Virus record (IMG/VR): IMGVR_UViG_2778261449_000001
DNA: 7,299 nt
Direction: 5' to 3' (one strand)
DNA from: a virus
Lineage: Duplodnaviria > Heunggongvirae > Uroviricota > Caudoviricetes
The position numbers and the translations under genes are program-made. Below the pieces are notes generated by a model, which made no database searches, had not been told where the DNA came from, and was given only the letters and a program-made list of their open reading frames with translations. Shown in pieces: positions 1 through 7,299 of this stretch. Numbering within the stretch: the stretch's first letter is position 1; every line of letters starts with the position of its first letter.

Positions 1-125
1 TGAAAGTTGGGAAAGTGTATATCGATTACGACTATACCCCCGTCCCGCCGCTGGAAAACCTGAGCCTGCGCCAGCGCATCACCGATACCTATCTGGCGAA
101 CCTGTCGGACTCGGTCAACAGCTAA
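1..125 (+). CDS. FI: 3' end of tail sheath gene (P2 gpFI-like), partial, runs off the window start
   Basis: Open frame from the window start to TAA at 123-125 (…[10 protein letters not shown]). It sits immediately upstream of FII in the conserved P2 order FI-FII-E-T-U-D. The FII Shine-Dalgarno (AAGGAG, 123-128) overlaps the stop. Assignment is by synteny only, as the fragment is short. Confidence 0.6.
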
Positions 126-137
126 GGAGCTCTGAGC

Positions 138-656
138 ATGGCGTTACCCCGCAAACTGAAATACCTGAATATGTTCAACGATGGCCTCAGCTATATGGGC
201 GTTGTTGAATCCGTCACCCTGCCAAAACTGACCCGCAAGCTGGAGAAATATCGCGGCGGCGGGATGCCGGGGGCGGTGTCGGTTGACCTTGGCCTCGATG
301 ACGATGCGCTGTCGCTTGAGTGGACGCTCGGCGGTCTGCCTGACATTGAATTGTGGGCGCAGTACGCCTCACCGGGTGCTGACAGCGTGCCGCTGCGTTT
401 TACCGGCTCTTATCAGCGTGACGACACCGGCGCGATTTCTGCCGTCGAGGTGGTGATGCGTGGCCGTCATAAAGAATACGACGGCGGTGAAAACAAGCAG
501 GGCGAAAGCGGTACAACCAAAATGGCGACCGAGTGCGCCTATTACCAGCTCACGATCGACGGCAAAGAAGTCATCGAGATTGACGTGATCAACATGGTGC
601 TGAAAGTCGACGGTGTCGACCGTATGGCAGAGCACCGCAAGGCGATTGGCCTGTAA
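138..656 (+). CDS. FII: Phage major tail tube protein (P2 gpFII family)
   Basis: 172-aa ORF starting MALPRKLKYLNMFNDG…, which I recognise as the P2 FII tail tube N-terminus, with the same length as P2 FII. Strong SD (AAGGAG) 9 nt upstream of the ATG. Position matches the P2 tail cluster. Confidence 0.9.
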   Translation: MALPRKLKYLNMFNDGLSYMGVVESVTLPKLTRKLEKYRGGGMPGAVSVDLGLDDDALSLEWTLGGLPDIELWAQYASPGADSVPLRFTGSYQRDDTGAISAVEVVMRGRHKEYDGGENKQGESGTTKMATECAYYQLTIDGKEVIEIDVINMVLKVDGVDRMAEHRKAIGL

Positions 657-710
657 TCCTTCAACCGGTCAGTGAGGCTGGCCGGTCATTTACCCTGATG
701 AGAAATTCGC

Positions 711-1025
711 ATGAAAAATATCAATGAGACTGCTGTTGCTGACACTGAGAACGTCAATCCGAATGTCGTTATTTTTGACACCCCGCTGATGCGCGGTGAG
801 CAGAAAGTTGAGCAGGTCACCTTAACCAAACCGAATGCGGGAACCCTGCGCGGGGTGTCGCTGGCGTCGCTGGCAAATTCCGACGTTGATGCGCTGATTA
901 AGGTGCTGCCGCGCATGACATATCCGGCACTGACCGAGCACGAGCTCGCGCGTCTGGATGCGTCAGACCTGATTTCACTGGCCGGTAAGGTGGTCGGTTT
1001 TTTGTCACCAGCTTCGGGTCGCTGA
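711..1025 (+). CDS. E: Tail assembly chaperone gpE (zero-frame product)
   Basis: 104-aa ORF (MKNINETAVADTENV…) lying between the tube and tape measure genes, the conserved position of the chaperone. It contains the slippery run GGTTTTTTG at 996-1004 near its 3' end. Confidence 0.85.
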   Translation: MKNINETAVADTENVNPNVVIFDTPLMRGEQKVEQVTLTKPNAGTLRGVSLASLANSDVDALIKVLPRMTYPALTEHELARLDASDLISLAGKVVGFLSPASGR

Positions 1026-1180
1026 CCTTCCCGGAAAAACTGTCGGTCGATGACCTGATGGCGGATATTGCGGTGATCTTCCACTGGCCGCCATCAGAGC
1101 TAAATTCCCTGAGTGTGACCGAGCTCCTGACATGGCGCGATAAGGCGCTGCAACGAAGCGGAAGCCATCATGAGCAATAA
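711..1180 (+). CDS. E+E': Tail assembly chaperone gpE+E', made by programmed -1 ribosomal frameshift at T6G (996-1004)
   Basis: After the slippery site, the -1 frame (codons from 1004) is open for 59 codons (VTSFGSLTFPEKLSVDDLMADIAVIFHWPPSELNSLSVTELLTWRDKALQRSGSHHEQ*) and stops at TAA 1178-1180, overlapping the T start at 1170. This is the conserved G/GT-like arrangement known for P2 E/E'. Confidence 0.75.
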
Positions 1181-3611
1181 CGTCAGAATCGAGGTGCTGC
1201 TGAACGCAGTTGACCGGGCAAGCCGCCCGCTTAAAGCGATTCAGAACGCCAGCAAATCCCTGTCTGGTGATATCCGCAATTCACAAAAAAGCCTGTGCGA
1301 ACTTAATGTGCAGGCGTCCCGTATTGACGGATTCCGCAAAGCCAGCGCCCAGCTTGCCGTGACCGGTCATTCGCTTGAGAAAGCGAAACAGGAAGCGCAA
1401 GCCCTTGCCACACAATTTAAAAACACCGAGCGCCCGACGCGCGCGCAGGCGCAGGTGCTTGAATCGGCAAAGCGTGCCGCCAACGGGCTGCAGACGAAAT
1501 ACAACAGCCTCACTGAGTCTGTTAAGCGCCAGCAACGTGAACTCGGTGCAGTCGGTATTAATACCCGTAATCTGGCAAATGATGAGCGGGGGCTTAAATC
1601 GCGCATCAGTGAGACTACCGCGCAGCTTAATCGGCAGCGTGAGGCACTGGCGAAAGTCAGCGCACAGCAGGCGAAGTTAAGCCGGGTGAAAGCGCGGTAT
1701 CAGGCCGGTAAATCACTGGCCGGAAACGCGGCGGCGGCTGGCGCAGCCGGTGTTGGTATTGCGACGGCGGGAACCCTCGCCGGGGTTAAGCTGCTGACGC
1801 TTGGTTATGAATTTGCACAGAAAAACTCAGAGCTGCAGGCCGTGCTCGGTGTCGACAAACAGTCGCCTGAAATGCAGGCGCTGCGTAAACAGGCGCGCCA
1901 GCTCGGTGATAATACCGCTGCCTCTGCCGATGATGCGGCGGGTGCGCAGATTATCATTGCCAAAAGCGGCGGCGATGCGGCGGCCATTCAGGCGGCGACG
2001 CCGGTCACACTGAATATGGCGCTGTCGAACAAGCGCACGATGGAAGAAAACGCTGCGCTGCTGACAGGCATGAAATCTGCTTTTCAGCTCTCTAACGATA
2101 AAGTCGCGCATATTGGTGATGTTCTCTCGATGACGATGAACAAAACCGCCGCCGACTTTGATGGAATGAGTGATGCGCTGACCTATGCCGCGCCAGTGGC
2201 GAAAAATGCCGGGGTAAGTATCGAAGAAACCGCCGCAATGGTGGGGGCGCTGCACGATTCCAAAATCACCGGCTCGATGGCGGGTACAGGGAGTCGTGCC
2301 GTTCTGAGTCGCCTGCAGGCGCCAACCGGTAAAGCGTACGACGCCATCAAAGAGCTCGGTATTAAAACGTCAGATAGCAAAGGCAATACGCGCCCGATAT
2401 TTTCCATCCTGAAAGAAATGCAGCGCAGTTTTGAGAAAAACAATCTTGGAACGGGTCAGAAATCCGAATACATGAAAACCATTTTCGGTGAAGAGGCCAG
2501 CTCGGCGGCCGCCGTGCTGATGGCCGCCGCATCAAGCGGCAAGCTCGACCAGCTCACCGCCGCGTTTAAAGCCTCAGACGGTAAGACTGAGGAACTGGTT
2601 AAGGTTATGCAGGATAACCTCGGCGGCGACTTTAAAGAGTTTCAGTCAGCCTATGAGGCGGTCGGCACTGACCTGTTTGATCAGCAGGAGGGCTCACTGC
2701 GTAAGCTGACGCAGACGGCCACGCAATATGTGCTCAGGCTCGACGGCTGGATCCAGAAAAATAAAGGGCTGGCGACCACCCTCGGCGTGGTGGTTGGTGG
2801 TGCGCTGGCGCTGATCGGTGTGATGGGCGGGATTGGCCTTGTCGCATGGCCGGTGGTGATGGGGATTAATGCCATCATTGCGGCGGCTGGCGTGCTCGGT
2901 GTGGTTTTCAGTACGGTCGGCGGCGCGATTGTCACGGCCATTGGCGCAATCAGCCTGCCGGTGCTGGCGGTAGCCGGTGCAGTGGTGGCCGGTGCATTGC
3001 TGATCCGCAAATACTGGGAGCCGCTCGGTGCATTCTTCTCGGGCGTGGTGGAGGGACTGAAAGCCGCCTTTGCACCGGTGGGGGACATGTTTACCCCGCT
3101 CGCGCCGGTGTTTGACGCCATCGCTGAAAAGCTGGGTGTCGTCTGCCAGTGGTTTAAAGACCTGCTTGCGCCGGTGAAAGCCACGCAGGACACGCTCTCC
3201 AGTTGCAAAAATGTCGGCGTTACTTTTGGCCAGGCGCTGGCTGATGCGCTGATGATGCCGCTCAAGATGTTTAACAGCCTGAGCGGCAAGGTCGGCTGGC
3301 TGCTGGAGAAACTCGGCGTTATCAAAAAAGAATCCAGCGACCTCGACCAGACCGCAGCGAAAGCGAATAAGGCGTCCCCGAATGGCGGGTATATCCCTGC
3401 GACCGCAGGTTATGGCGGGTATCAGGCGTATCAGCCGGTCACAGCGCCCGCAGGCCTGTCTTATATCGACCAGAGCAAAAGCGAATACAACATCAACCTG
3501 CAGGGCGGAGTCGCACCGGGCAGTGACCTTGACCGCCAGCTCCGTGACGCGGTCGACAAACTTGACCGCGAGAAACGTGCGCGTCAGCGATCCAGTATGA
3601 GACTCGACTGA
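1170..3611 (+). CDS. T: Tail tape measure protein (P2 gpT family)
   Basis: 813-aa ORF directly after the E/E' chaperone. The N-terminal half is coiled-coil-like and rich in Q/A/K/R. There is a long Gly/Ala/Val/Ile-rich hydrophobic segment (LGVVVGGALALIGVMGGIGLVAWPVVMGINAIIAAAGVLGVV…), typical of tape measure proteins. RBS-like GGAAG precedes the ATG. Confidence 0.9.
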   Translation: MSNNVRIEVLLNAVDRASRPLKAIQNASKSLSGDIRNSQKSLCELNVQASRIDGFRKASAQLAVTGHSLEKAKQEAQALATQFKNTERPTRAQAQVLESAKRAANGLQTKYNSLTESVKRQQRELGAVGINTRNLANDERGLKSRISETTAQLNRQREALAKVSAQQAKLSRVKARYQAGKSLAGNAAAAGAAGVGIATAGTLAGVKLLTLGYEFAQKNSELQAVLGVDKQSPEMQALRKQARQLGDNTAASADDAAGAQIIIAKSGGDAAAIQAATPVTLNMALSNKRTMEENAALLTGMKSAFQLSNDKVAHIGDVLSMTMNKTAADFDGMSDALTYAAPVAKNAGVSIEETAAMVGALHDSKITGSMAGTGSRAVLSRLQAPTGKAYDAIKELGIKTSDSKGNTRPIFSILKEMQRSFEKNNLGTGQKSEYMKTIFGEEASSAAAVLMAAASSGKLDQLTAAFKASDGKTEELVKVMQDNLGGDFKEFQSAYEAVGTDLFDQQEGSLRKLTQTATQYVLRLDGWIQKNKGLATTLGVVVGGALALIGVMGGIGLVAWPVVMGINAIIAAAGVLGVVFSTVGGAIVTAIGAISLPVLAVAGAVVAGALLIRKYWEPLGAFFSGVVEGLKAAFAPVGDMFTPLAPVFDAIAEKLGVVCQWFKDLLAPVKATQDTLSSCKNVGVTFGQALADALMMPLKMFNSLSGKVGWLLEKLGVIKKESSDLDQTAAKANKASPNGGYIPATAGYGGYQAYQPVTAPAGLSYIDQSKSEYNINLQGGVAPGSDLDRQLRDAVDKLDREKRARQRSSMRLD

Positions 3612-3624
3612 GGGAGGGATAAAA

Positions 3625-4089
3625 ATGTTAATGGGGCTGGGCTTTTTCGTGTTTGAACGGCGCACCCTGCCGCATCAGTCAATGCAGTATTCGAAGGACT
3701 ACCGCTGGGTGTCAAATGACCGTATCGGAAAACCCCCGGCTTATCAGTATCTCGGGGAGGGGGAAACCTCGCGTACCCTGTCGGGCACGCTTTACCCTGA
3801 AATCACCGGCGGGCGTCTGTCACTGATGGCCATCGAACTGATGGCCGATGAGGGGCGCGCATGGCCGCTGATTGACGGAACCGGCATGATCCACGGGATG
3901 TATGTCATCGATAAAGTGACTCACAACCACACCGAGTTATTCAGCGACGGCGCGGCTAAAAAAATCGAGTTTAGCCTGTCGCTTAAGCGGGTGGATGAAT
4001 CCCTCGCGGCCATCTACGGCGACCTGAAAACGCAGGCTGATAATCTGGTCACGTCTGCCGGTAACTGGCTCGGGGGGCTGGCGGGATGA
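3625..4089 (+). CDS. U: Phage tail protein gpU
   Basis: 154-aa ORF, similar in size to P2 gpU, with SD GAGGGAGGG 6-8 nt upstream of the ATG. It sits between T and D, and its stop overlaps the D start (ATGA at 4086-4089), indicating translational coupling. Confidence 0.85.
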   Translation: MLMGLGFFVFERRTLPHQSMQYSKDYRWVSNDRIGKPPAYQYLGEGETSRTLSGTLYPEITGGRLSLMAIELMADEGRAWPLIDGTGMIHGMYVIDKVTHNHTELFSDGAAKKIEFSLSLKRVDESLAAIYGDLKTQADNLVTSAGNWLGGLAG

Positions 4090-5249
4090 TAACGGGAATG
4101 ACTATTCAGGCCGGGGCGCGCATTGCTCCTGATTTTATGCTCACGCTCGGTGGCGCAGATATCACACAGAATTTCAGCGACCGGCTTATCGGGCTGACCA
4201 TGACCGACAATCGCGGATTCGAGGCTGACCAGCTTGATATCGAGCTCGATGATACCGATGGACTGGTCGAGTTGCCGCCGCGCGGGGCATCGCTGACCCT
4301 GTGGCTGGGCTGGCAGGGCTCGGCGCTGATTAACAAAGGGAGTTTTACGGTTGACGAAATCGAGCACCGGGGCGCGCCTGACAGGCTGACTATCCGGGGA
4401 CGCAGTGCGGATTTTCGCGGGACGCTGAACTCGCGCCGCGAGCAGTCATGGCACGACACCACGCTCGGGGTGATTGTCGAGACTATCGCGCAGCGTAACA
4501 AACTGACGGCCAGCGTGGCTGATACCCTGAAAGCTGTTGCTGTGCCGCATATTGACCAGTCTCAGGAATCCGACGCGGCGTTTTTGTCCCGACTGGCGGA
4601 TCGCAACGGGGCAACGGTTTCGGTCAAGGCCGGGAAATTGTTATTCCTGAAAGCCGGTAGCGCGATGACGGCCAGTGGTAAGGCCATCCCGCAAATGACC
4701 GTCGAACGCGGCGACGGCGACCGGCATCAGTTTGCCATAGCCGACCGCGAGGCATACTCCGGCGTAACCGCTAAATGGCTGCACACCAGAGACCCGAAAC
4801 CGCAAAAGCAAAAGGTGAAGCTCAAGCGCAAACCCAAAGAGCAGCACCTGCGTGCGCTGCAGCACCCGAAGGTTGCTAAAACATCGGCAAAGGCTAAAAA
4901 GAAGAAGGTGCAGGAAGCGCGGGAAGGTGAGTATATGGCCGGTGAGTCCGACAATGTTCTGGAACTCACGACCATCTACGCGACAAAGGCGCAGGCCATG
5001 CGCGCAGCTCAGGCAAAGTGGGACAGGATACAGCGTGGGGTGGCGGAGTTTTCGATCACGCTCGCCACTGGCCGCGCTGATTTATTTCCTGAAACGCCGG
5101 TGGCAGTGAAAGGCTTTAAGCGCGTTATAGACGAGCAGGCGTGGATAATCAGTCGTGTGGTACACAGCCTCAACGGGAGCGGCTTCACGACGGGCTTAGA
5201 GCTTGAGGTTAAGGTTTCTGATGTGGAGTATGAAAGCGAGGAAGTTTAA
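4086..5249 (+). CDS. D: Phage late control gene D protein (gpD tail protein)
   Basis: 387-aa ORF, the same length as P2 gpD, in the conserved position after U and before ogr. It contains a lysine-rich low-complexity stretch (KPQKQKVKLKRKPKEQ…AKAKKKKVQ). Confidence 0.85.
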   Translation: MITGMTIQAGARIAPDFMLTLGGADITQNFSDRLIGLTMTDNRGFEADQLDIELDDTDGLVELPPRGASLTLWLGWQGSALINKGSFTVDEIEHRGAPDRLTIRGRSADFRGTLNSRREQSWHDTTLGVIVETIAQRNKLTASVADTLKAVAVPHIDQSQESDAAFLSRLADRNGATVSVKAGKLLFLKAGSAMTASGKAIPQMTVERGDGDRHQFAIADREAYSGVTAKWLHTRDPKPQKQKVKLKRKPKEQHLRALQHPKVAKTSAKAKKKKVQEAREGEYMAGESDNVLELTTIYATKAQAMRAAQAKWDRIQRGVAEFSITLATGRADLFPETPVAVKGFKRVIDEQAWIISRVVHSLNGSGFTTGLELEVKVSDVEYESEEV

Positions 5250-5329
5250 CGGCGTGTGTTGTTTATGTGTTTGTTTTATAAGTAAAAATTAGTAAAATTA
5301 ACACATTGAATACGCCGGAGACCCTCATC

Positions 5330-5551
5330 ATGTTTCATTGTCCGAAATGCCATCATGCCGCCCACGCCCGCACGAGTCGCTATTTTACTGATACCACAAA
5401 AGAGCGGTATCACCAGTGCACAAACATTAACTGCAGCTGCACGTTTGTGACCACTGAAACAGTCGAGCGTTTTATCGTGTCGCCGGGGGAAGTAGTACCC
5501 GCGCCGCCGCATCCGACATCATCAGGTCAGCAACAAATTCACTGGATGTGA
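5330..5551 (+). CDS. ogr: Ogr/Delta-family zinc-finger late transcription activator
   Basis: MFHCPKCHHAAHARTSRYFTDTTKERYHQCTNINCSCTF… carries the C-x2-C-x22-C-x4-C zinc finger and closely matches my recollection of the P2 Ogr N-terminus (MFHCPLC…). I prefer the ATG at 5330, with GGAG 9 nt upstream, over the TTG at 5306 used by the ORF track. An AT-rich promoter-like region lies at 5255-5305. Confidence 0.9.
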   Translation: MFHCPKCHHAAHARTSRYFTDTTKERYHQCTNINCSCTFVTTETVERFIVSPGEVVPAPPHPTSSGQQQIHWM

Positions 5552-5558
5552 CAAACGA

Positions 5559-5586
5559 GAAAGCCCCGCGAATGCGGGGCTTTTTG
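5559..5586 (+). terminator. Rho-independent terminator downstream of ogr
   Basis: AAAGCCCCGC-GAAT-GCGGGGCTTTTTG: a perfect 7-bp GC-rich stem (5563-5569 / 5574-5580) with a 4-nt loop, followed by T5. Confidence 0.85.
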
Positions 5587-5857
5587 CAACTTTTAGATCA
5601 GTTATGTTAAGTACATTTCCGTCGGCAAAGTGCCAGGAGCGGGTTCTAGAGAGTGACTAACGTTAGTTATATGTGTAAAATTCCTTAAAAATAAGAAGGA
5701 TATATATCCATGACAGCAATTGCATATTGGATTAACTGAGAATCAATTGAGAAATTTTTGGGGGGGCAAAAAATAAACTAGCTAATTAAATTTTTATAAA
5801 TAACGAATATAAGACTGCAAGCCATTTAACAAAAGTTTATAAATAAAGGAGTCAGTT

Positions 5858-6709
5858 TTGAACAATATCCCCATATCTACTCAATGGACTTTAGACGCTA
5901 CGGGTGAAGTTGGACGCTCATCAGTAAATTCTGTTTATATGATTATATGTCCTGCGACAGGCTCGAAAGGATCTGGTTTTTTAATAGATAATGGGTTAAT
6001 AGTAACGAACGAGCATGTTATCACTGGATGCTCTACAAATCAGATTTTCGCAATTTCAGCTTATGGACAGAAGATTCCAATTTCTCAAAAATGGATAGAT
6101 TCTGATCGCGATTTAGCTGTGCTGAGACCTGCCATTACCCAGACTGGTGGGCTAAGTATTGTTAAGGATAATGATCTTAAAGTTGGTGAATCAGTAACAA
6201 CTTGGGGATACCCATTAGGATACAACGGTCCTGCACCGTTACTATCCGTTGGTTATCTAGCAGGATTTAACTCATACCAAACCGCCAAGGGACAAAAAAA
6301 ACATCTAGTGGTAAATGGGGCATTTAACTCAGGAAATTCTGGTGGAGCTCTTTTAAAAGCTTCAGATAATAAAGTAATAGGTATTGTAGTGAGTAAGCAT
6401 GCTCCTATCAGTCAATACCATCAATCAGCTATTGAAGCTTTGTCTGAAAATATGAGTGGCGTCACCTATACCGCTACTAATGACGCTGGAGAAACTAAAA
6501 GTTTTGTAGAATCTCAAATTGTAGCAGAATTATTGATTCATATGAGAAGTCTAACTCAAGTTATGATTGGAGAAGCAATTGCAGCAGAGGAATTACTTTC
6601 GATGCTTAGCGAAATTGACTTGAGTCCACCACAATCTATGTCAAGAAATGCCTTATGTCATTGCGGGAGTGGAAAACGCTTCAAAGAATGTCATGGAAAG
6701 ATATCCTAG
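5858..6709 (+). CDS. Cytoplasmic trypsin/chymotrypsin-like serine protease with a C-terminal SEC-C zinc-binding motif; prophage cargo (moron) gene and candidate defence effector
   Basis: 283-aa ORF with a TTG start at 5858 and SD AGGAG 6 nt upstream. Motifs read directly from the translation: GSGFLIDNGLIVTNEHV (His box), DSDRDLAVL (Asp) and NSGNSGGALL (GxSGG serine box) form a trypsin-like catalytic triad. The C-terminus NALCHCGSGKRFKECHG matches the SEC-C metal-binding motif found at the SecA C-terminus. There is no N-terminal signal peptide or transmembrane segment. The gene is markedly AT-rich compared with the flanking phage genes. Confidence 0.8.
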   Translation: MNNIPISTQWTLDATGEVGRSSVNSVYMIICPATGSKGSGFLIDNGLIVTNEHVITGCSTNQIFAISAYGQKIPISQKWIDSDRDLAVLRPAITQTGGLSIVKDNDLKVGESVTTWGYPLGYNGPAPLLSVGYLAGFNSYQTAKGQKKHLVVNGAFNSGNSGGALLKASDNKVIGIVVSKHAPISQYHQSAIEALSENMSGVTYTATNDAGETKSFVESQIVAELLIHMRSLTQVMIGEAIAAEELLSMLSEIDLSPPQSMSRNALCHCGSGKRFKECHGKIS

Positions 6710-6854
6710 TAAGTACTTATATCAGTCTGATAATGGCTCTTCCAATACAAAAGACTTCACTTACTCTGCCGTCATCTCTGCTCCTCGCTTATTGCAGACG
6801 GTCAAAAGCTTACAAGCTGTTGACTAGATGTGTTCTTACATTGTCAGTTAAAAC

Positions 6855-6882
6855 AAAAGCCCCGCAAATGCGGGGCTTTTTG
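6855..6882 (+). terminator. Rho-independent terminator downstream of the cargo gene; near-identical copy of the ogr terminator
   Basis: AAAGCCCCGC-AAAT-GCGGGGCTTTTTG: stem 6859-6865 / 6870-6876, then T5. It differs from the 5559-5586 terminator at a single loop base. Confidence 0.85.
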
Positions 6883-6947
6883 TATCGATGTGGTCAATGT
6901 GTGGACATTGATAGAAATAAATCCATTTATTTCAGTAAGTTACATGC

Positions 6948-6974
6948 AAAAAATAAGCCCGTGTAAGGGAGATT
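6948..6974. other. att: P2-type attachment core (prophage-host junction)
   Basis: AAAAAATAAGCCCGTGTAAGGGAGATT matches the 27-bp P2 att core as I recall it. It lies where attP sits in P2 (just after ogr) and overlaps the terminator of the minus-strand sRNA gene. No integrase ORF follows, consistent with host DNA beyond. Confidence 0.7.
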
Positions 6975-7034
6975 ACACAGGCTAAGGAGGTGGTTCCTGG
7001 TACAGCTAGCATTTTATGGGTTATGTTTTTCAGC
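6948..7034 (-). ncRNA. cyaR: Hfq-dependent, CRP-activated small RNA CyaR (RyeE)
   Basis: The reverse complement reads GCTGAAAAACATAACCCATAAAATGCTAGCTGTACCAGGAACCACCTCCTTAGCCTGTGTAATCTCCCTTACACGGGCTTATTTTTT (87 nt), which matches my memory of E. coli CyaR. It ends in an intrinsic terminator (stem CCTGTGTAA / TTACACGGG, then T-run) that coincides with the P2 att core. In E. coli K-12 cyaR is known to lie next to the cryptic P2 remnant (ogrK). Confidence 0.7.
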
Positions 7035-7041
7035 GAAACGG

Positions 7042-7084
7042 ATGATAACCTTAATAAATACAGCTGTATGTGATCGGTTTCTAA
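7042..7084 (-). promoter_or_regulatory. Putative cyaR promoter: -10 element plus class II CRP-binding site
   Basis: In minus-strand orientation, TATCAT (complement of 7042-7047) lies about 7 nt upstream of the inferred transcription start at 7034. A TGTGA-N6-TCTAA-type CRP half-site pair spans 7069-7084, centred about -42 from the start, as expected for a class II CRP promoter. Confidence 0.45.
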
Positions 7085-7299
7085 GAATTTTCCATCCGGG
7101 AAAAATAATCGAAATTAATCACTTACCGTGGGGATTACGCGCTGAGAGATCCCCTCATAATTTCCCCAAAGCGTAACCATGTGTGAATAAATTTTGAGCT
7201 AGTAGGGTTGCAGCCACGAGTAAGTCTTCCCTTGTTATTGTGTAGCCAGAATGCCGCAAAACTTCCATGCCTAAGCGAACTGTTGAGAGTACGTTTCGA

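Follow-up and report, generated by a model that had tools for sequence, protein, structure and literature searches.

A probable P2-family prophage attR at the 3' end of the cyaR small RNA gene

Organization of the prophage end, the att core and cyaR

The DNA analysed here, a single stretch of 7,299 nucleotides that we refer to as the window, places the right end of a P2-family prophage immediately to the left of the small RNA gene cyaR, with genes for the tail tube, E/E', the tape measure, U, D and Ogr. Open reading frames, Pfam matches and the annotation of a related prophage together give the P2 late-gene order FII-E-T-U-D-ogr, abutting attR. The late genes run uninterrupted for ~6.9 kb with their reading frames intact, and their identity to any sequenced phage is at most 82% (76-82%). 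The tail/baseplate hub gene gpD occupies 4086-5249 on the + strand (Pfam Phage_GPD; relative's annotation) and is followed by the late-gene activator ogr at 5330-5551 (+), which matches Ogr_Delta at 2e-20 and is an annotated CDS in the relative. A terminator scan and folding place an ogr terminator at 5560-5583, a near-duplicate of a second hairpin at 6855-6880. This second element is a symmetric G+C hairpin (-20.8 kcal/mol, z = -4.2) that lies after the cargo gene described next; it is predicted to terminate transcription in both directions, and its counterpart in P2 is the ogr/F-operon terminator, located ahead of the P arm.

Bracketed by these two near-identical terminators, in the interval between ogr and attP, is a cargo module of ~1.3 kb (5584-6854). 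The AT-rich gene within it (5858-6709, +) encodes a trypsin-like peptidase of 283 amino acids with a C-terminal SEC-C motif (Pfam Trypsin_2, 1e-19; SEC-C, 3.6e-7), and its GC content of 30-41% compares with 57-61% in the tail genes. A tblastn search of 50,697 phage records returned no match to this gene, and the P2 hotspot literature that we checked does not mention it. Membership in a defined defence system was considered and set aside: PADLOC gave only protease-domain matches (RT-Protease_XI, PDC-M35A, LmuA, HamA) together with SEC-C-motif matches. The placement of the junction described below shows that the cargo gene belongs to the phage and not to the host. A different insert of ~330 bp is found at the same position in Citrobacter youngae (L007 7480-7880), and for this reason the ogr-attP interval looks like a variable moron slot.

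Between the 6855-6880 hairpin and cyaR lie the elements of a P2-type attachment site. Direct repeats of the Int arm type (TGTGGTCA / TGTGGACA) at 6885-6912 align with the annotated 'Int P arm' of P2; the Int arm repeats TGTGGTCAATGTGTGGAC, at 6890-6907, stand at the same distance from the core as they do in P2, and the published consensus of the arm-type Int repeat is tgTGGaCa (PMC3448106). The stretch that links the P arm to the core (6916-6949) is A/T-rich and is the putative equivalent of the IHF site, as judged by positional alignment to the annotated IHF site of P2; over the P arm and IHF segment, 61 of 77 aligned columns are identical to P2. The window has a single copy of the 27-mer AAAAAATAAGCCCGTGTAAGGGAGATT, at 6948-6974 (+), and 200 shuffles yielded no match even when three mismatches were allowed. 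The 27-mer is identical at 27/27 positions to the annotated 'attP core' of phage P2 (NC_001895), and this attR copy of the core constitutes the last 27 nt of cyaR.

A scan of the whole window with Rfam cmscan returned one family only, CyaR_RyeE (RF00112), at 6951-7036 on the minus strand; the score of 100.7 bits stands against a gathering threshold of 47 (E = 7e-20; model positions 1-85 of 85). In an alignment with MG1655, K-12 cyaR (b4438) and the minus strand of the window from 7034 to 6948 are identical at 87/87 positions, including the CCUCCU seed loop, which establishes the 87-nt minus-strand RNA as CyaR, as a preliminary description of this DNA had proposed. The gene, also named ryeE, thus spans 6948-7034 (-), with its transcription start site at 7034; a match to it is present in 5,424 of the 5,426 complete E. 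coli genomes, and we take its product to be a CRP-activated, Hfq-dependent small RNA. The predicted fold of CyaR consists of three hairpins, as expected (-19.8 kcal/mol for the full RNA, z = -3.0). The last of the elements, an intrinsic terminator predicted by terminator scan and folding at 6956-6983 (-), has an 11-bp stem, in which 6983-6973 pairs with 6966-6956, and a 6-nt loop; the hairpin alone folds at -15.9 kcal/mol, and the U-tail UAUUUUUU follows directly after it at 6955-6948. The Rho-independent terminator with its 3' U-tail, the Hfq-binding module of CyaR, accordingly appears from the sequence to be present here.

Comparison of these coordinates with those of the attachment site shows that the att core equals CyaR nt 61-87: it takes in the whole 3' arm of the terminator (11 nt), the loop (6 nt), the tail (8 nt) and 2 nt of the 5' arm, whose other 9 nt fall outside the core. 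The preliminary description, in which the core was the reverse complement of the terminator hairpin and U-tail, therefore holds for the loop, the 3' arm and the U-tail and has to be amended for those 9 nt.

Upstream of cyaR, the sequence reads as an intact host promoter. A -10 hexamer, TATCAT, covers positions -13 to -8 (7042-7047, -), and a CRP-type site centred at about -42.5 covers 7069-7084 (-), reading TTAGA-N6-TCACA on the sense strand and TGTGA-N6-TCTAA on the + strand; both are the same in K-12 and both lie where they had first been placed. The 107 nt upstream of cyaR, which reach back into the last codons of yegQ/trhP, differ from K-12 by one base only, at -26. The cyaR loci of four other genera, represented by Citrobacter, Scandinavium, Buttiauxella and Enterobacteriaceae G50, keep the -10 element and the CRP half-sites, with drift in the spacer. 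The synteny that characterizes CyaR, namely the 3' end of yegQ/trhP followed by a promoter with a putative CRP site, is found in the window, and no integrase gene lies to the right of cyaR within it. The claim that a prophage has its right end at cyaR is thus borne out, with P2-type genes and Int arms to the left and the host promoter and yegQ to the right. An intact integrase directly to the right had been named as the observation that would speak against a host junction; the 3' end of yegQ/trhP stands there instead.

Only the last 23 nt of yegQ/trhP (..RNPHGK, stop at 7121-7119) are retained, at 7119-7141 (-), as identified by alignment to K-12 trhP and by the annotation of the relative. The rest of the window, 7142-7299 (-), is the end of an IS10/ISVsa5 element inserted in yegQ, with the 3' end of its transposase gene pointing toward cyaR; this segment matches at 100% an 'IS4-like element ISVsa5 family transposase' present at 4,896 places in 1,028 genomes. 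Counted from the insertion point, the yegQ/trhP stop codon ends after 23 nt and cyaR starts after 107 bp. The inside end of the element is proximal, the last 6-7 codons of TrhP are severed from the rest of the gene, and the IS10 end is found 57 bp beyond the CRP site. Homology to the window ends at 7141 in all 5,426 complete E. coli genomes, and the IS10-yegQ junction at 7141/7142 occurs in none of them.

Related prophages and use of the cyaR site

DNA that is 99.8-99.9% identical to positions 1-7141 of the window is located between yegR and cyaR in 39 complete E. coli genomes. In NZ_AP021944.1 it forms part of a complete prophage of 32 kb, arranged as yegR, then int through to ogr and the cargo gene, then cyaR and yegQ, with a gene set that comprises int, C, cox, A and replication, capsid, lysis and tail genes. 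The Int protein of this relative is 84% identical to P2 Int and is encoded at the far end of the prophage, beside a second copy of the core. Two further sets of accessory genes are seen in the relative: genes for a DUF3696 ATPase and a hypothetical protein separate the replication genes from the portal gene (L002 15803-18474), and one for a hypothetical protein of 328 amino acids separates a virion morphogenesis gene from baseplate gene V (L002 27502-28488). Both positions are classical P2 variable loci.

Neither attL nor int falls within the 7,299-nt window. The attL core next to int in NZ_AP021944.1 is AAAAAATAAGCCCGTGTAAGGGcGtTT, a 25/27 match to the core at cyaR (22 exact), and the core expected beside int at the far left end of the present prophage is the variant AAAAAATAAGCCCGTGTAAGGGCGTTT. 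The attL variant recurs in other lysogens of the same prophage, which differ in their host-flank polymorphisms, as well as in a second prophage lineage, whose P' arm is different; because it is common to independent hosts and to this second lineage, we read it as a property of the attP of these phages rather than as a stray mutation. On the int side of attP in the relative lineage, the core serves as both the 3' arm and the U-tail of a predicted hairpin (-23.5 kcal/mol, with no shuffle as good; L002 9273-9320). In this phage lineage, folding thus depicts attP and attB as two predicted terminators that share their descending halves. That attP might always be an int terminator was considered and does not hold in general: the int side of P2 attP has no significant hairpin (z = 0.43).

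To what extent the site is used was read from complete genomes. At least 80% of a 151-bp probe that runs from the P arm through the core into cyaR is covered in 1,197 of 5,426 complete E. coli genomes (~22%), in agreement with the earlier suggestion that cyaR is a recurring P2-family integration site. In the remaining ~4,200 unoccupied genomes the match is exactly window 6948-7034, with homology breaking at the edge of the core. A second probe, for yegR and cyaR without interruption, matches as one contiguous piece in 4,568 genomes and falls into two places in ~850. Roughly 16% of the genomes therefore carry a large insert at cyaR and a further ~6% a short K-12-type remnant; these fractions are approximate, since short remnants were joined into one place by the search and the occupancy counts overlap (1,197 + 4,568 > 5,426). 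Among the 1,197 genomes with a P arm beside cyaR, ~340 appear to be of the remnant type. K-12 itself carries such a remnant, as the preliminary description had stated: in the K-12 annotation, the final 18 nt of cyaR are also part of the cryptic prophage PR-X (ogrK, and yegZ = D', a fragment of gene D). At the left boundary of PR-X (L003 2814-2831), a truncated copy of the core, ACACGGGCTTATTTTTTT, is fused directly to the D' fragment, which suggests that the remnant arose by a deletion with one end in the attL core.

The same site serves P2-like phages beyond E. coli. A P arm followed by the same core is found in 12 phage records, P2 included, and many other P2-like phages share the arm and have a different core. 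In a survey of 80 P2-like gpD loci outside E. coli, with one genome per species, cyaR lies directly downstream of the prophage end at five, in Escherichia ruysiae, Citrobacter youngae, Scandinavium sp., Buttiauxella sp. and Enterobacteriaceae bacterium G50. In each of these five cases outside E. coli, the core matches the cyaR terminator of the host concerned.

Inspection of the 'empty' E. coli sites revealed a degenerate P2 P arm, TCGATGTGGTCAATGgaaGACgGTtACCAGA, just beyond the core (L006 2430-2500, strain DA33133; also L003 2832-2880 and L002 9195-9264). Its alignment score was reached by none of 2,000 shuffles, and such an arm was seen in every E. coli examined, 'empty' sites included; the flank of the E. 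coli attB therefore looks like the fossil attR of an older P2-like prophage. By extension, an ancient P2-like integration may have left the species-wide 3' end of cyaR as its scar. A separate peculiarity occurs in strain HS-01 (L005 ~2690-3000), where an almost cytosine-free insert of ~310 bp splits the core after AAAAAATAAGCCCGTGTA and moves the 3' arm and U-tail away from the rest of the cyaR terminator. An assembly artefact or a small element could account for this insert.

Strand exchange, the junction and competing explanations

The segment exchanged on integration is identical in phage and host in the present strain, and the origin of its bases was read from other lysogens. A scan of viral contigs for a P arm joined to a Citrobacter-type core found 21 junctions, all with cyaR, and four of the 21 with an E. 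coli-type cyaR body and promoter. Among complete E. coli genomes the same type of junction is present in ~49 records (~1%), including the type strain ATCC 11775, APEC O1, S88 and O25b:H4. In ATCC 11775, attR (L110 38923-38949) reads AAAAAATAAGCCtGcGTAAGGGAGATT, is joined to E. coli cyaR and bears the phage bases T13/C15; attL (L110 3100-3126) reads AAAAAATAAGCCCGTGTAAGGGAGATT, is joined to a P2-type P' arm and bears the host bases C13/T15. This arrangement is direct proof, at the site in question, that the phage supplies the 3' arm: the junction next to cyaR received its two polymorphic bases from the phage, and the junction next to int kept those of the host. It places the exchange to the right of core position 15. 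In AP021944, AR_0137 and 2011C-4251 (the cGtTT lineages) the polymorphisms lie at core positions 23 and 25, and place the exchange to the left of position 23. The exchange is therefore confined to positions 16-22, GTAAGGG, which correspond to 6963-6969 of the window and which, by this reciprocal segregation in other lysogens, form the putative Int overlap region. Seven base pairs is the usual overlap length of tyrosine recombinases. The accessible literature gave nothing usable on mapped P2 Int cleavage sites.

Transferred to the window, this map would assign 6948-6962 (CyaR nt 73-87) to the phage, 6963-6969 to the exchange region, and 6970 onward (CyaR nt 1-65) to the host. The phage would then supply at most the last 22 nt of cyaR, and certainly only the last 15 nt. 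The statement that the att core supplies the terminator of the small RNA can be kept for these 15-22 nt, and does not extend to the terminator as a whole.

The lysogens with a Citrobacter-type core carry a distinct allele of CyaR as a result. Its two substitutions, A73G and G75A, move a G-U wobble within the terminator stem and leave stability unchanged (-16.2 versus -15.9 kcal/mol); a phage suited to a cyaR terminator of the Citrobacter type appears to be the source of the altered 3' arm. We lean, if only slightly, toward the broader view that P2-family prophages do more than sit beside cyaR and rewrite its last 15-22 nt. The segregation of core polymorphisms, with ~1% of genomes expressing a phage-derived 3' arm, the fossil P arms, and the use of cyaR in at least five genera all point in this direction.

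We interpret 6948-7084 as the attR of a P2-family (Peduovirus-like) prophage that was integrated by Int at the last 27 bp of cyaR, the preferred P2 site in E. coli, which older literature calls locI; we put the probability of this reading at about 93%. By this account the attP of the phage would carry a copy of the loop, 3' stem arm and U-tail of the cyaR terminator, and recombination would take place within that copy, most likely in GTAAGGG at 6963-6969. The last 15-22 nt of cyaR would be swapped for phage DNA of the same sequence, so that the gene, its terminator and its Hfq-binding U-tail would be restored unaltered and the promoter would stay on the host side. CyaR would, we infer, still be expressed and terminated normally in this strain.

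Two other origins of the junction have to be weighed against integration of a complete prophage. The DNA might be a decayed remnant like K-12 PR-X (ogrK-D'), in which the core would be a scar and no recombination-competent element would be left. Such remnants are common at cyaR (the ~340 remnant-type genomes noted above; K-12 keeps 629 bp of P2 DNA there), a fossil P arm persists even at 'empty' sites, and the window ends short of int and attL; set against this, ~6.9 kb of uninterrupted late genes with intact reading frames lie in the window, and nearly identical DNA belongs to a complete 32-kb prophage in 39 genomes, which makes decay quite improbable here. The adjacency of phage genes to a small RNA would also be seen if the DNA came from a phage genome in free or circularised form, or from a phage with its own copy of cyaR, and that adjacency is all that speaks for such an origin. 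In sequenced P2-type phages the 27-bp core is followed by the P' arm and int, without a cyaR body, whereas here it is followed by a complete cyaR, the host promoter and the 3' end of yegQ in chromosomal synteny, and cyaR is itself an almost universal gene of E. coli. We consider this origin refuted, its residual probability being negligible.

A further question is whether an attR of this kind leaves CyaR output untouched. Integration could be non-neutral if read-through from the cargo gene ran antisense to cyaR, or if the IS10 upstream altered transcription, with a consequent rewiring of the CRP-CyaR regulon. The layout gives some reason to consider this: the cargo gene and cyaR are convergent, as first described, with 238 bp from the cargo stop (6709) to the CyaR 3' end (6948), and on the other side the IS10 end comes to within 57 bp of the CRP site with its transposase gene directed toward cyaR. 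Yet two terminators lie between the convergent genes, the strong symmetric hairpin predicted at 6855-6880 and that of cyaR itself, and not one as the preliminary description had it; the proposed mutual interference, which may occur, is for this reason not favoured by the anatomy. The same convergent arrangement of ogr terminator and cyaR is present in P2 and in K-12 PR-X, moreover, and the CRP site, the -10 element and the whole 107-nt upstream region are intact. An effect on CyaR output is thus unlikely, and we retain the reading of an attR at which cyaR would be rebuilt unchanged.

Comparison with known attachment sites

The arrangement described here is already known as a frequently used phage site; what is particular to the window is the phage lineage, the cargo gene and the IS10 insertion. 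According to Table 2 of the E. coli W genome paper, three P2-type elements are inserted at 'cyaR RNA': Wphi2 in E. coli W, ogr-D' in K-12 and P2*B in E. coli B (Archer et al. 2011, PMC3032704). In the open-access literature we found this table alone to name the cyaR site, and no running text that equates the P2 core with the terminator of CyaR. The finding leaves the present picture of CyaR and of P2 as it was, and its value lies mainly in annotation: the right boundary of the prophage is 6948, to within the core, and cyaR is intact. Modest and testable additions are the map of the exchange region, the finding that ~1% of genomes carry a CyaR allele of phage origin, the fossil P arm seen at 'empty' sites and the use of the site in several genera. 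The allele offers a natural example of a prophage that alters two bases of a core-genome small RNA.

Compared with P2 attP/attB and K-12 PR-X, the junction has the same 27-bp core, the same order and spacing of P arm, IHF region and ogr-type terminator, and the same cyaR 3' end beside yegQ/trhP. It differs from P2 in its late genes, whose 76-82% identity to any sequenced phage marks a separate lineage; in the attP core of this lineage, which departs at positions 23 and 25; in its P' side, which is predicted to fold into a strong int terminator on the core where that of P2 does not; and in the 1.3-kb cargo module between the ogr terminator and the P arm. With Wphi2 of E. coli W and P2*B of E. 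coli B it shares the insertion site and the phage family, and differs in lineage and cargo; the P-arm/core/cyaR junction of E. coli W is the same at 92% identity.

The 3' ends of other RNA genes serve in the same way, as is well described for phages of the P2/186 type. Phage 186 uses tRNA-Ile, Fels-2 and SopE-phi use ssrA, P2-type prophages use rybB, and sdsR is a further such locus in Salmonella (PMC3448106, PMC3032704, PMC3333887). As in integration at the 3' ends of tRNA, tmRNA and small RNA genes generally, attP here copies the 3' end of a small structured RNA gene, and the gene is rebuilt. In contrast to integration at tRNA genes, the target is the intrinsic terminator of an Hfq-dependent small RNA rather than a tRNA acceptor/T arm, and the core is short (22-27 bp). 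The terminators of small RNA genes, like the 3' ends of tRNA genes, thus act as attachment sites for phages and are restored when the phage integrates.
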